64,000 bases of DNA from an uncultured cyanobacterium (lineage in GTDB: Bacteria > Cyanobacteriota > Cyanobacteriia > Pseudanabaenales > Pseudanabaenaceae), in assembly GCA_963703315.1 (NCBI GenBank), contig OY969811.1, positions 320,001 to 384,000 of the forward strand. The letters run 5' to 3'. The notes under the pieces are model-generated. The model made no database searches, was not told the origin of the DNA, and worked only from the letters and a program-made list of their open reading frames with translations. Positions 25,547-29,519 of this stretch are shown here, in pieces. A program made the position numbers and the translations under genes. Within the stretch, counting starts at the first letter, position 1, and the number at the start of each line of letters is the position of its first letter.

Positions 25547-27250
25547 CCCACATTCCGCTCGTAATGGAAGGAAAAAAACAATTACGAAACAGGAGCAGGG
25601 AGCAAATAGTAGCGTTGGCAGGAGGGAGAAAAGAAATTCAAAATGTGAAGGCGAAGCGGAGACAAATTTGCAACTTGAGTCAGGTTCTGAAAAGAAACTA
25701 AATGAACCGCCATAAAACATTGAAAAATCCAACGCAAAGTTGGCGAATTAGTGGGTTTACCCAATTGATTAGGAATAGTATCTTGAGCGATGGCTAAGGC
25801 AAGTCTGAGTTGACGTTGGGCTAAATTATAAACGAGCAAGCACAGTGCCATAATCATGCCCAAAGCCTCAATGCGTTTAGCAGACTTGAGAAAAACACTC
25901 GAAGTAAAAAACAAAGGATCTTTGAGGAAACGAAAACCACGCTCAGTGCTCTGCTGAGCCTTGTATTCCCGTAAAGCATCATCAGCCGTGAATTGTAAGG
26001 AATCAAGAATATTCGTGGCTAAAATAAACCTGCCACAACGCTGTTGCTGAGCCAAGATTTCTGAGTCTATAGGAATCACCGTTGCAGTAATCCGATAACT
26101 AATGCTGGTGGGTATAGCATCAGGTTGTGGCTTACCCCGTTTCGCATAATGTGGTTTTTCTACTGCCTGAATATGGTCGAGTTGATGCCATTTCATCTTG
26201 GTTGATAATTTTTCAGCAGCAGCGATCGCGTCAGCAGCACAGGCAAAATCTTGTCCCGCCAAAGTGTGTAAATCTTGATGACATTTTTGCTGGACTTGCT
26301 CAAGCTTTTTGTCTAACTTTTTGATGTCTGATTTACGTCTTGCTTGGCTATCAACTAAAATCCATCTCTGTCTTACACCACCATACTCACTCACAGTTTC
26401 GGCTGTCCTGTATCCCTTAAATTTACTTTCTTGTAGGTCAGTTGTGCTTGACACTAAGTCACTTGCAGTTTTGATGCTTAATGGCACTCGGGTTAGCCAT
26501 TTTAGTCCTGTCATTGCTACCAGATTTTCTTCACTGTATAGCGCTGCATCGCCTACGCATATTCCCTCAAATGTCCACTGGGTTTTGAATTCTTGTAATA
26601 GTCCTGCAAATCTTGCTTTGTCGGCTTGATTTCCACTTACCACTTCCATCATTACGGGAATGTCTCCATCTCCTACACAGATCAGGTTCATCATAAATTG
26701 CTTCAGGTCGGGGCGATGGTCGCGTGAATATCCGTGTGTGATTTCGATACTCCCTTCTTCCTCTCTGCCATATTCCCCATCTACGTGAAATGAGGTTGAG
26801 TCTATATGTCCTGTTTCTACCTTGACATCGTATTTCGCTACTGCTTTCAGGCTGATTCCTAAAAATGTCTCACTCAGTCCTGCTTCATGTAAGTCATCCA
26901 GTACTTTACCGATGCGGTCATCATTGATTTGTTCGGCTGTTATCCCTTCCCCCAATAAGTGCTCGGTTGCTTTTCCTTCAAAGAATTTACCAAACATATA
27001 CAGGGGCGCTGATACAAATCCTAATCCATTCAGGAGCATTGCTTTGACGATTACCCCTGCGCTTACTTTTTCTCTTGAGCTTCTCCCGATTATCGTGTTT
27101 ATTTCTTCCACGATTCCCATCTCGTCGATGATTCCTGCCACGATCCCTAGATGGTCTAGGTTCGTTACTTTCATCTCTGTATTAATATCTGCCTCCTCTT
27201 TTTGCCTTTTCTCTAATTATTTTACCCTTCCATTACGAGCGGAATGTGGG
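25547..27250 (-). mobile_element. Complete IS1634-family insertion sequence
   Basis: 25-bp perfect TIR CCCACATTCCGCTCGTAATGGAAGG; 5-bp TSD TTCAT at 25542-25546 and 27251-27255. Confidence 0.92.
25582..27174 (-). CDS. IS1634 family DDE transposase
   Basis: LDHLGIVAG, HIDSTSF, GYSRDHRPDLKQ, ERGFRFLKDP. Confidence 0.93.
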   Translation of the reverse strand: MKVTNLDHLGIVAGIIDEMGIVEEINTIIGRSSREKVSAGVIVKAMLLNGLGFVSAPLYMFGKFFEGKATEHLLGEGITAEQINDDRIGKVLDDLHEAGLSETFLGISLKAVAKYDVKVETGHIDSTSFHVDGEYGREEEGSIEITHGYSRDHRPDLKQFMMNLICVGDGDIPVMMEVVSGNQADKARFAGLLQEFKTQWTFEGICVGDAALYSEENLVAMTGLKWLTRVPLSIKTASDLVSSTTDLQESKFKGYRTAETVSEYGGVRQRWILVDSQARRKSDIKKLDKKLEQVQQKCHQDLHTLAGQDFACAADAIAAAEKLSTKMKWHQLDHIQAVEKPHYAKRGKPQPDAIPTSISYRITATVIPIDSEILAQQQRCGRFILATNILDSLQFTADDALREYKAQQSTERGFRFLKDPLFFTSSVFLKSAKRIEALGMIMALCLLVYNLAQRQLRLALAIAQDTIPNQLGKPTNSPTLRWIFQCFMAVHLVSFQNLTQVANLSPLRLHILNFFSPSCQRYYLLPAPVS

Positions 27251-27338
27251 TTCATTGTCACCACCGTCATTTTCCGACAATTTCTGGCAAAACATTATTC
27301 CCATAATTCTCGTAGATACTGTCTTGAGTACCAAAAAG

Positions 27339-28325
27339 TCAAGAGGGAATTTGAACAAAATTTGGGTCGAAAGAACGCTGAGACTTGAGAACGCCAAAGA
27401 CCTGTCGTAACAGCTTGTGCATGACAGCCCCAATGACAGACATTTTGGACTTACCCTTAGCCGTAAGGCGAGCGCAGAAAGCAGCAATCGGCAAATTATA
27501 ACGACGGGCAACAATCGCAGGCATAAACAAAGCTTTACGCAAACGCGAATTACCAATTTTAGATAAACGTGGCTTACCATGAATCGAAGAACCAGATGAG
27601 AACTCACGGGGAGTTAAACCCGCAAAAGCTGCCAGTTGATCAGCAGTATCAAAGGCAGAAATATCCCGAATTTCCGCCAGTAATATAGTTGCGGTCAGTT
27701 CAGCAATACCAGGAATAGAAGTCAACAAATCCCGTTGAGATTTCAAATGAGGGTGTTGATCAAAGTGCTGACGGATCAATTTTTTGGTCATCTCAATTTG
27801 CTCTTTGAGAAAATCAATGTGAGCATTAATTGCCTCAACCAAAATTGGATCAGCCGTAGCAAGACGATTCTGCTCTTGCTGCTGCATAGCAGTTAAGCTA
27901 TCTAAACGATGCACCAATGCTTGTAGTTGCTCAATTTCTAATGCTGGTGGTGTCCAAAGAGCAGGTTTTAAGGCTGCACAAAATCTAGCAATGACTTTAG
28001 CATCAGCACGGTCAGTCTTTGTACGACTTAACTCACTCTTGCCAAAGGCTTTGGGACGGGATGGATTAACAATACTTACTTTGTATCCTGCCTCTACTAA
28101 GAATCTAGCTAACCCATTGCCGTAAGTGCTGGTAGCTTCCATACAACTATGCAAGTTTGTCACATTTTGAAGGTTTAGCCATTCTTGTAATTCAGCAAAT
28201 CCTTCAGGATTGTTGGCAAATACTTTGCTCTTGATTTTGGCGTTGCCTTGGATTAGAGCAACATCAAATTTGGCTTTGCTGATATCTATTCCTAAAACAT
28301 CATATACTTCATTGTTATTGTTCAT
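27339..28325 (-). CDS. IS110 DEDD bridge recombinase
   Basis: GIDISK, MEAT, KTDRAD (DEDD); SIPGI; GLTPREFSSGSS catalytic-Ser loop; GNSRLRKAL. Confidence 0.95.
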   Translation of the reverse strand: MNNNNEVYDVLGIDISKAKFDVALIQGNAKIKSKVFANNPEGFAELQEWLNLQNVTNLHSCMEATSTYGNGLARFLVEAGYKVSIVNPSRPKAFGKSELSRTKTDRADAKVIARFCAALKPALWTPPALEIEQLQALVHRLDSLTAMQQQEQNRLATADPILVEAINAHIDFLKEQIEMTKKLIRQHFDQHPHLKSQRDLLTSIPGIAELTATILLAEIRDISAFDTADQLAAFAGLTPREFSSGSSIHGKPRLSKIGNSRLRKALFMPAIVARRYNLPIAAFCARLTAKGKSKMSVIGAVMHKLLRQVFGVLKSQRSFDPNFVQIPS

Positions 28326-28364
28326 TGGGGGCAGTCCTCTTGCTAGATTTGTCCATCAAGCAAT

Positions 28365-28567
28365 CAGTGGTATTGAACTATCCTTGTGAATGCAGGTTTA
28401 CCCGTTGGGCGACCTCTGATACTGTCCAGTCTTTACTTGTTTCCACTGTTTAAGCAGAGACGACTCTATCTACAAAACGGGCTTGGTGTCCCTAGGGGCA
28501 GATCGAGTTTATCTCTGCTTTTGCTTTTTCGGATTGTAGTAAAGATTTTATCCTTTACTTTTCCTCC
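28365..28567 (-). ncRNA. Putative bridge RNA of the IS110 element (ends approximate)
   Basis: 5' hairpin; target loop closed by AAGCAGAGA/TCTCTGCTT with guides TCTGCCCCT and TTTTGTAG; donor loop GGACAGTATCA...TTCACAAGG. Confidence 0.8.
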
Positions 28568-28577
28568 TAGATACAAG

Positions 28578-28776
28578 GGGCAGAGCATTCCCGCAGAAAT
28601 TTATGATTTTTCAGATCCTCTCAAATCGGGAATGCTCTGCCCTAAACCTCACACATTTACCGACAATCCCCAAACCGCAGAGATAAATTATTCGTTACAG
28701 CAAAGAGGGTAGAGCATTTGCCGATAGAGATTTCGGTGATAATTTACAAATATTGGCGCAAATGCTCTACCCCTAC
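28578..28776. repeat. Two REP inverted doublets upstream of RAYT
   Basis: GGGCAGAGCATTCCCG...CGGGAATGCTCTGCCC and GGGTAGAGCATTTG...CAAATGCTCTACCCCTAC. Confidence 0.8.
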
Positions 28777-28803
28777 ATTTGCCACATCTGCCATATTTAT
28801 TTT

Positions 28804-29283
28804 ATGTCTTACAATCCTGAAATTCATTATCGACGTTCTATCCGTTTGCAAGGATATGACTATACAAGCGCAGGAATCTATTTTGTAACCATCTGTTGCC
28901 ATCAAAGACAGCATTTGTTTGGAGAAATAGAAAATGGAGAGATGAAAATAAATGCGATCGGTCAAATTGTCTCTAACCTATGGCAAAAGATTCCTCAGCA
29001 TTTTCCGAATGTAGAGCTTGATGCATTTATTCTGATGCCCGATCACCTACATGGAATCATCGTAATTTCAGAATCAAAGGGAAAATCCTCCTTAGCCAAT
29101 ATTATCCAAAATTTTAAATCTATTTCCTCTCGCAAAATCAATCGTATTAACAAAAACTACGGCGTATCGATTTGGCAACGCAATTATTACGAAAAGATTA
29201 TCAGATCTGAACAGGAATTAAAAAATCTGCGTGAATACATTAAAAATAATCCAGCTAATTGGACAGATTGCAATACCGAATAA
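28804..29283 (+). CDS. REP-associated tyrosine transposase (RAYT, Y1 HUH family)
   Basis: RRSIRLQGYDY, YFVTIC, MPDHLHGI (HUH), WQRNYYEKIIR, YIKNNP; ATG 28804 lies just after the REPs. Confidence 0.88.
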   Translation: MSYNPEIHYRRSIRLQGYDYTSAGIYFVTICCHQRQHLFGEIENGEMKINAIGQIVSNLWQKIPQHFPNVELDAFILMPDHLHGIIVISESKGKSSLANIIQNFKSISSRKINRINKNYGVSIWQRNYYEKIIRSEQELKNLREYIKNNPANWTDCNTE

Positions 29284-29316: not shown

Positions 29317-29519
29317 TAGGGGCAGAGCATTCCCGCAGAAATTTATGATTTTTCAGATCCTCTCAAATCGGGAATGCTCTGCCCTAAACCTCCCACATTC
29401 ATCGACAATCCCCAAACCGCAGGGATAAATTATGGATAAAAGCCAAGAGGGTAGAGCATTTGCGGATATAGATAGTAGTAGCAATTTGAAAGATAGTGAC
29501 GCAAATGCTCTACCCCTAC
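29317..29519. repeat. Two REP inverted doublets downstream of RAYT; direct repeat of 28578-28776
   Basis: First about 70 bp identical to the upstream block. Confidence 0.8.

Follow-up and report, generated by a model that had tools for sequence, protein, structure and literature searches.

A stretch of 64,000 nucleotides from an uncultured cyanobacterium of the family Pseudanabaenaceae (GenBank assembly GCA_963703315.1, contig OY969811.1, positions 320,001 to 384,000; hereafter the window, with positions counted from its first letter) carries an IS110-family element on its minus strand (27314..28577). The element lies 284 bp from a gene encoding a REP-associated tyrosine transposase (RAYT), and a divergent pair of repetitive extragenic palindromic (REP) hairpins is found between the two. 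The locus raises the question of what placed the element precisely at the end of a REP. A reading made from the letters and their predicted translations, without database searches (the original prediction), had answered that the element encodes a bridge RNA programmed against the REP associated with the local RAYT. This answer was borne out by our analysis, as the predicted guide is identical to the left flank of the insertion and the REP adjoins the single RAYT gene. The element is very probably an active or recently active insertion sequence of the IS110 group, of the IS621/ISCro4 type, with a working bridge-RNA system.

The element and its insertion sites

A blastn search of the whole 4.57-Mb genome identified seven full-length copies of the element (four with 100% and three with 99.92% identity), all of which start with CTTGTATC at the 5′ end and finish with ACAGTATCT at the 3′ end. 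Counting one CT core, the element comprises 1264 bp and runs from the left end (LE, 28577) to the right end (RE, 27314), and it consists of a 252-nt non-coding LE (LE 1 = 28577), an open reading frame (ORF) of 328 codons (28325–27339) and an RE of 25 nt. The ends and all coordinates given for it in the original prediction were thereby confirmed. CT was found at both junctions in all seven copies and as a single CT in empty sites. Neither terminal inverted repeats nor a target duplication was detected, and the non-coding LE is long, as for the ends of IS110 elements. The copies were shown to differ at two places only, namely by G74A in the copy at genome position 2716312 and by an extra C directly before the ATG in two copies. 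An identical protein without stops is encoded by all seven.

The ORF (27339..28325, minus strand) encodes a recombinase of 328 amino acids with a DEDD RuvC-like domain (PF01548, E 8.5e-27) and a Tnp domain (PF02371, E 1.4e-26), both over the curated cut-offs. It reached 244.7 bits on NF033542, “IS110 family RNA-guided transposase” (cut-off 140). Only two relatives with solved structures were found, IS621 (8wt6, E 7e-73) and, as the best match, ISCro4 (9t56, E 3.5e-76, residues 9–321), which was compared by protein only. In a phmmer alignment with 8wt6, the deposited chain of which is numbered 2 higher than in PMC11208158, D14, E63, D105, D108 and S244-G245 were aligned with D11, E60, D102, D105 and S241-G242 of IS621; the roles of D11, E60, D102, D105 and S241 are those described for IS621 in PMC11208158. 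Judged by its sequence, the protein is an IS110-family RNA-guided transposase, and a record “IS110 family transposase [Pseudanabaena]” for it already exists in public databases. In the IS1111 group, the guide RNA occupies a position downstream of the transposase. As the predicted RNA of the element is located in the 252-nt LE and the RE is only 25 nt long, the element is assigned to the IS110 group, and it shares the superfamily and the RNA-guided principle with IS1111-group elements (seekRNA) as described in PMC13604230.

The left flanks were shown to end in GCTCTGCCC in five copies, GCTCTACCC in one copy and GCAGTATTCCC in one copy, and the right flanks to begin with AC followed by a purine in all seven. 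The empty site, with one CT counted as part of the element, therefore reads TCT[G/A]CCC-CT-AC. Mapping of all genomic copies with their flanks revealed no copy with different ends, and for six of the seven the insertion site is a REP hairpin's 3′ end (..GCTCT[G/A]CCC-CT-AC..). In the window, this is the hairpin GGGCAGAGCATTCCCGC ... GCGGGAATGCTCTGCCC (28578..28642, plus strand), of which the minus-strand 3′ end is the insertion site. The proposal that excision restores a REP end, GCTCTGCCC-CT-ACG, agreed with the flanks, with the free sites and with the empty site of a congener (L076), where ..CGTAG is followed by GGGCAGAGC.. in the orthologous REP adjoining the RAYT gene.

REPs of class 1 are hairpin repeats of ~65–75 nt with the form GGGCAGAGCATTCCC...GGGAATGCTCTGCCC, and those of class 2 have the form GGGTAGAGCATTTGCG...CGCAAATGCTCTACCC. 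Hairpins of both classes were found at 28578–28642 and about 28700–28776, and another at 29509 of the window; a search of 12 genomes of the genus found the ~200-bp hairpin pair repeated in every one. At the end of the second hairpin (GCGCAAATGC class), shortly before the RAYT gene, is a free target-like site, TCTACCC-CT-AC (28766..28776, plus strand; genome 348766), so that only one of the two targets of the window REP pair is filled. The RAYT gene (28861..29253, plus strand; NF047646, 85.3 bits with a cut-off of 80) was the sole match over the family cut-off in the whole genome, and the target of the element is the REP class adjoining this gene.

The genome contains five unoccupied copies of the 11-mer TCTGCCCCTAC, each found where a REP hairpin has its 3′ end, and nine unoccupied copies of TCTACCCCTAC; all 14 of these free TCT[A/G]CCCCTAC sites are preceded by GCTCT in a REP context. 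Thus, five of ten perfect sites are occupied, compared to one of ten TCTACCC sites (a G:T wobble at guide position 4) and none of 12 TTTGCCC sites (a C:A mismatch at position 2). The guide is reflected in which sites are filled, with small numbers in each class. Two pairs of copies were found head to head with their LEs facing each other (G000:C1:2714875-2717575 and 3075044-3077747). The 172–175 bp between them correspond to a divergent REP hairpin pair with one hairpin of each class, and since the copies flank this pair, both of its outward-facing targets are filled.

The seventh copy (L065, G000:C1:3868924-3870187) was found at a non-REP site, TATTCCC-CT-AC, within a protein-coding frame. 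This frame of 599 codons is split by the element, and its halves match GmrSD_N (E 3.9e-22 and a weak 2e-4), with a weak match to GmrSD_C. GmrSD_N is the N-terminal domain of the GmrSD restriction endonuclease, and a probable defence gene was thus inactivated by an off-target insertion. A donor-like target was considered for this copy and rejected, as the CAGTAT found in the flank does not stand in register with the left arm of the donor (0 of 7 positions).

The predicted bridge RNA and its likeness to IS621

The LE would encode a bridge RNA of roughly 200 nt, the predicted body of which (LE 11–213; 28365..28567, minus strand, as are all parts below) is composed of a 5′ stem-loop (LE 11–47; 28531..28567), a target-binding loop (LE 58–126; 28452..28520) and a donor-binding loop (LE 130–213; 28365..28448). 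The target-binding loop is closed by outer stems (58–67 with 117–126 and 70–73 with 112–115) and contains an inner stem-loop (86–99), whereas the stems of the donor-binding loop are formed by 130–135 with 208–213 and 147–150 with 199–202 around an inner stem-loop of 22 nt (163–184). The stem AAGCAGAGA/TCTCTGCTT that had been proposed to enclose the left target guide was found where it had been placed.

The left target guide (LTG), TCTGCCCCT (28494..28502), corresponds to the 7 nt of the left flank plus the CT core. Compared to the flanks of the element's own copies, it is identical in five of seven, differs by one G/A difference in one and agrees at 5 of 7 positions in one. In the 64-kb window, TCTGCCCCT occurs three times (0.45 expected from shuffles): in the loop, at the junction and in one further REP. 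This third occurrence, at 29318–29326 on the minus strand downstream of the RAYT gene, lacks a following AC and is unoccupied. The right target guide (RTG), GUAG (28470..28473), is complementary to the CT core plus AC. Together, the two guides would pair with both strands of the 11-bp target TCTGCCC-CT-AC, and the G at guide position 4 would form a wobble pair with T, admitting the second REP class, TCTACCC. The longer segment TTTTGTAG (28470–28477) had been expected to pair with the right flank through wobbles. Its location was correct, and of its letters only GTAG and the next U are used by all seven copies: the right flanks contain a purine at position 12 in seven of seven copies and at positions 13, 14 and 15 in four, four and two of seven, respectively. 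With the UUU at 28474–28476, the RTG pairing can be lengthened.

In the second loop, the left donor guide (LDG), ACAGUAUC (28418..28425), corresponds to the RE plus the C of the core. As expected from the original prediction, ACAGTATC occurs exactly twice in the window, at the right end (27315–27322) and in the loop (28418–28425). The right donor guide (RDG) had been placed at CACAAG (28383–28388). This position was correct, and the hexamer was shown to form the central part of a 9-nt discontiguous guide, ATTCACAAG in DNA letters and AUUCACAAG in the RNA (28383..28391), that would pair with CTTGTAT of the LE with a 2-nt bulge. Following the pairing scheme published for IS621 (PMC11208158), the RDG is fully complementary to CTTGTAT, with CAAG opposite CTTG, A opposite T, UC bulged and AU opposite AT. 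LDG and RDG would therefore pair with the joined ends of the element, ACAGTAT-CT-TGTAT. Besides, both loops contain a putative handshake guide. AU in the target loop (28468..28469) possibly pairs with donor positions 6–7 (AT) after strand exchange, and the G of GA in the donor loop (28381..28382) may pair with target position 7 (C); the letters are complementary at both of these donor positions and at target position 7.

The fold of the whole LE had a z-score of -2.63. In a hand-drawn structure applied to eight close relatives, 87.6% of the cells were paired, compared to 29–50% with slid partners, and 11 of 45 pairs changed on both sides. With a covariance model built from seven cyanobacterial LEs, 12 of 13 searched loci showed a full-length match where one was expected, including distant matches in enterobacterial plasmids (L053, E 1.8e-7; L054, 2.5e-7; L071, 1.6e-5) and in Deinococcus (E 0.0098). 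In the model alignment of 14 hits, 93.9% of the cells were paired, compared to 28–50% with slid partners, and 31 of 35 pairs changed on both sides. In an element from Chamaesiphon (L037), the model matched in two pieces (781–862 and 1020–1163) separated by ~157 nt, and other, hairpin-rich sequence appears to interrupt its target loop or to take its place. RNAalifold, run on a plain MAFFT alignment of 16 LEs, placed the first 5 nt mostly in pairs with the RDG and missed the outer stems. As this pairing equals the complementarity of the donor guide, it was not taken as an RNA stem, and the hand-drawn structure and the covariance model were used instead.

The bridge RNA of IS621 is described as a 5′ stem-loop followed by a target-binding and a donor-binding loop (PMC11208160, PMC11208158). 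According to PMC11208158, its target loop contains an LTG of 9 nt (A50–U58), a stem-loop, an RTG of 4 nt (G77–G80) and a handshake guide (81–82), and its donor loop an LDG (A123–C130), a stem-loop, a discontiguous RDG (A157–G165), in which U159/U160 are flipped out and G161 forms a pair with T, and a handshake guide (166–167). IS621 sequences were taken from the printed supplement of that paper and compared by eye only; the element itself had no match in E. coli genomes (blastn, 20,395 records). The IS621 architecture claimed for the element was recovered segment by segment when the LE fold was set against the printed wild-type bridge RNA, with the same order of guide segments and nearly the same spacing (by eye). 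The target loop of IS621 reads AUCGGGCCU-U-(12-nt stem-loop)-GU-UGC-GUAG-AU and that of the present element UCUGCCCCU (76–84)-A-(14-nt stem-loop, 86–99)-GU-UUU-GUAG (105–108)-AU (109–110). The donor loops read ACAGUAUC-AU-(22-nt stem-loop)-GU-AUUUGCAAG-GU-U in IS621 and ACAGUAUC (153–160)-AG-(22-nt stem-loop, 163–184)-GC-AUUCACAAG (187–195)-GA-U in the element.

The likeness to IS621 extends to the protein family and the catalytic residues, the CT core, the RTG GUAG, the identical LDG, the 22-nt stem-loop between LDG and RDG, and a target-loop handshake AU at the same place as A81/U82. The RDG has 9 nt in both elements, of which seven are identical. The donor of IS621 is given as ..AACAGTAT-CT-TGTATTATCC.. 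(supplementary table 1, PMC11208158), and its 14 nt around the core, ACAGTAT-CT-TGTAT, are identical to the joined ends of the present element. Both elements are inserted at a REP end reading ..CCTAC (E. coli REP queries ending ..ATCAGGCCTACG are given in PMC11208160), and in both, LTG position 4 is a G that is opposite a T in natural targets (G53:tT11* in IS621; PMC11208158). However, the LTG is AUCGGGC in IS621 and TCTGCCC here, so that the anticipated combination of an IS621-type donor with a different target guide holds. Further differences are the RDG (AUUUGCAAG in IS621, AUUCACAAG here), by which the G:T pair of IS621 becomes an A:T pair, the donor-loop handshake (GU in IS621, GA here), the target-loop stem-loop, which is 2 nt longer here, the cyanobacterial host, and the distant protein (~47% identity to enterobacterial plasmid homologues). 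G74A is carried by the single copy inserted into a TCTACCC site (2716312-2717575). LE position 74 is located two letters before the guide and corresponds by spacing to the syn-G48 linker nucleotide described for IS621.

By description, the element also resembles ISPpu9 and ISPpu10 of Pseudomonas putida, which are IS110-family elements present in about seven copies in REPs (PMC12288879; 10.64898/2026.03.19.712850). Unlike the element, ISPpu9 is described as having an extra small-RNA gene downstream of the transposase, and nothing comparable fits the 25-nt RE.

Covariation of guides and flanks in related elements

Related elements with 47–97% protein identity were found in Pseudanabaena, Chamaesiphon, Phormidium, Leptolyngbya, Kovacikia, Deinococcus and enterobacterial plasmids. 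Comparison of the LTG with the left flank in 18 insertions representing 15 different guides showed agreement at 7 of 7 positions in 11 insertions, at 6 of 7 in four, and at 5, 4 and 1 of 7 once each. Non-cognate guide–flank pairs (n = 300) agreed at a mean of 2.3 of 7 positions, and five of the 300 reached at least 6. In two of the four insertions with 6 of 7 matches (L034, L057), a guide G is opposite a target A, which represents an rG:dT wobble.

The other guides were found to change in the same manner. The RTG tracks the right flank, with GUAG mostly found with CT-AC, GAAG with CT-TC (L068) and GGAG with CT-CC (L070); four loci (L031, L053, L054, L071) were left out of the right-flank scoring. 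The LDG tracks the right end, as seen for ACAGCAU (L057) and ACGGAAU (L070), and the first letter of the donor-loop handshake tracks target position 7, mostly as G/C, as U/A in L040 and as C/G in L057 and L070, with the exception of L068, in which G meets G without pairing. Thus, at the sequence level, the loops change together with the flanks in the relatives.

Several relatives showed features of their own. Two different IS110 elements, L032 (= L056, G089:C20) and L040 (G089:C93), were found in one metagenome-assembled genome (MAG) labelled Phormidium, inserted at the same repeat, ..GGCGGTTGAAACCGCGA-CT. The guide of L040 (ACCGCGA) matches GGCGGTTGAAACCGCGA at 7 of 7 positions and that of L032 (GAAACCC) at 1 of 7. 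As the two share a common donor code and the guide of L040 fits the site, L032 was possibly inserted in trans by the RNA of L040. One assembled copy of each element type was counted in this MAG. At L035 (470-628, minus strand), a second, different IS110-type LE with the guide CCCGCCC-CT, like that of L058, was found head to head ~320 nt upstream of the L035 element. The L031 copy, from a Pseudanabaenales MAG, has AT instead of CT as guide core, a deletion of 4 nt after the RTG and the LDG ACAGTTTC, and looks degenerate. In addition, a biofilm-metagenome contig (run X2, record 16) aligned at 28421–28560 was shown to be a close variant of the element with the guide TTTGCCCCT and three changed letters before GUAG. 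This guide, seen in a single contig, matches TTTGCCC-CT-AC, the third REP class of the genome, of which the 12 free sites are all unoccupied.

Expression, alternative readings and significance

The original prediction placed TTGACT 18 nt from a TATCTT formed at the circle junction ACAGTAT-CT-TGTAT. At the computed junction, this arrangement was the sole site to pass the promoter scan: a -35-like TTGACT in the RE (27337..27342, minus strand), overlapping the recombinase stop TGA (27339–27341), is followed after 18 nt by TATCTT, composed of TAT plus the CT core at the RE (27314..27318, minus strand) and the first T of the LE. It shows 9 of 12 matches to a sigma-70-like consensus, and its second hexamer spans the junction. 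In the integrated copy, scanned with the same criteria, no sigma-70-like site was found on the minus strand between 27250 and 28700. Script-computed junctions of 11 elements contained a junction-crossing site in nine. The window element, L030 and L032 have one each (TTGACT, 18 nt, TATCTT), and six other relatives have TTGAC[T/A/C], 17–18 nt and TAT[C/G][C/T]T with the -10 at LE 5–10; two relatives have none. The clade of the window element contains an 8-nt insertion in the RE, TTTTGGTA, which shifts the -35 box. The tandem motif TAT-CT-TG-TAT-CT provides a second -10 candidate 7 nt upstream of the usual one. Compared to IS621, read by eye as TTGCAG-17-TATTAT with the bridge RNA starting at LE 17 (PMC11208158 supplement), the -35 box is 8 nt further from the junction, and the -10 candidate spans the core.

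Because the joined ends place the -35 box 18 nt from TATCTT, RNA and recombinase would be driven mainly from the excised circle. The RNA-bound recombinase would then exchange strands at the common CT core by means of Ser244 and the DEDD site, and the circular form would insert without duplication, leaving CT on both sides. Transcription, the RNA–protein complex, the circle and strand exchange are the steps that we infer from the arrangement of the locus. An RNA-library run (X6) contained contigs over parts of the LE and ORF, one of which extends into a different flank, and these do not prove that this copy is transcribed.

Several results weigh against a working bridge-RNA system of this kind. 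One of the seven copies is located at a non-REP site with only 5 of 7 left-target positions, and among the relatives L032 matches its own guide at 1 of 7 and L045 at 4 of 7 positions. A distant left end (L069), the guide of which equals its flank by eye, was missed by the covariance model at E up to 1. The pair counts lean toward the structure, because the window sequence served to draw it and the model served to fit the second alignment. No Rfam family reached its gathering score in 27000–29000. The 14-mer of the joined ends had no match in the assembly, and the -10 in use is uncertain since the RE insertion moves the -35 box to a geometry unlike that of IS621 and most relatives.

Three other explanations were weighed against this background. 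It is unlikely that targets are chosen in part through recognition of the REP hairpin, by the protein or as a DNA structure, with RNA pairing as just one of two matches needed, in a “sequence–structure dual-match”. Such a logic is proposed for ISPpu10 in a preprint (10.64898/2026.03.19.712850), and six of the seven copies as well as most insertions of the relatives lie at hairpin bases; sequence and structure are inseparable in this genome, as all 14 free sites are in REP context. However, a strict need for a hairpin is contradicted by the copy in a coding frame, which has no REP hairpin and shares 5 of 7 positions plus the core and AC with the target. Besides, covariation over 15 guides accounts for the insertion sites without any structure, and IS621 is reported to be reprogrammable to non-REP targets (PMC11208160). 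That the copies are relics which no longer move, with guide matches persisting for want of decay, is very improbable. The assembly contains no circle junction, and five perfect and nine wobble target sites are unoccupied, as such a reading would have it. On the other hand, the seven copies differ at only two positions with all frames intact, half of the perfect sites are filled, the orthologous REP of the congener is empty, and the different guides of close relatives in other genomes match different flanks, which requires ongoing function.

A somewhat less doubtful, yet still improbable, alternative is that integrated copies are the main source of expression, with read-through or a weak start inside them, and that the junction promoter is incidental. 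This is compatible with the account given in PMC13626964 and with the altered spacing between -35 box and junction in the window clade. It is opposed by the lack of a promoter-like site on the minus strand of the integrated form (27250–28700) and by the recurrence of an RE -35 box with a -10 at or just past the junction in 9 of 11 elements and, by eye, in the IS621 donor. An RNA-guided element expressed mainly from its excised circle thus remains the reading that we favor.

More tentatively, and with less than an even chance of being right, the element may be seen as a hyperparasite whose RNA guide tracks the RAYT–REP population of its host in three ways. Through G:T wobble of the G at guide position 4, a single RNA would gain access to the two REP classes TCTGCCC and TCTACCC. 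The guides of relatives in other Pseudanabaena may follow compensatory changes in the REP stem (TAAACCC; L031 and L043), and the fitting target of the metagenomic TTTGCCCCT variant is the third, unoccupied REP class. Finally, co-resident elements with one donor code, such as L032 and L040, might each be moved in trans by the other.

The literature already covers bridge RNAs and the way they covary with flanks, the targeting of REPs by IS621 and the promoter at the junction, and thousands of orthologues have been predicted (PMC11208160, PMC11208158). The element therefore adds a clean new case to a mechanism that was described in 2024 and is not a new mechanism; it will not surprise specialists, and the understanding of the mechanism is unchanged. 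In the literature searched, no paper brought Pseudanabaena and IS110 together, although the orthologue lists in supplements of bioRxiv preprints may include the element, and the works that mention IS110, cyanobacteria and bridge RNA together were unrelated. With seven near-identical copies, countable free and filled sites, a single RAYT and the donor code of IS621, the genome provides a natural test bed for the effect of guide mismatches and G:T wobble on the targets chosen in a real genome. For genome engineering in cyanobacteria, the element is a candidate native tool as well.

Some minor observations concern the surroundings of the element. Weak matches to Rfam mir-3202 were rejected as they correspond to the REP hairpin. 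A contig of run X1 with a loose end at 28576 joins the REP via CT to a sequence absent from the genome. An IS1634-family transposase gene (25582-27174, minus strand) is located 139 bp past the RE of the IS110 element; it contains DUF4277 and DDE_Tnp_1 domains, scored 386 bits on NF033559 and represents a second, unrelated insertion sequence.

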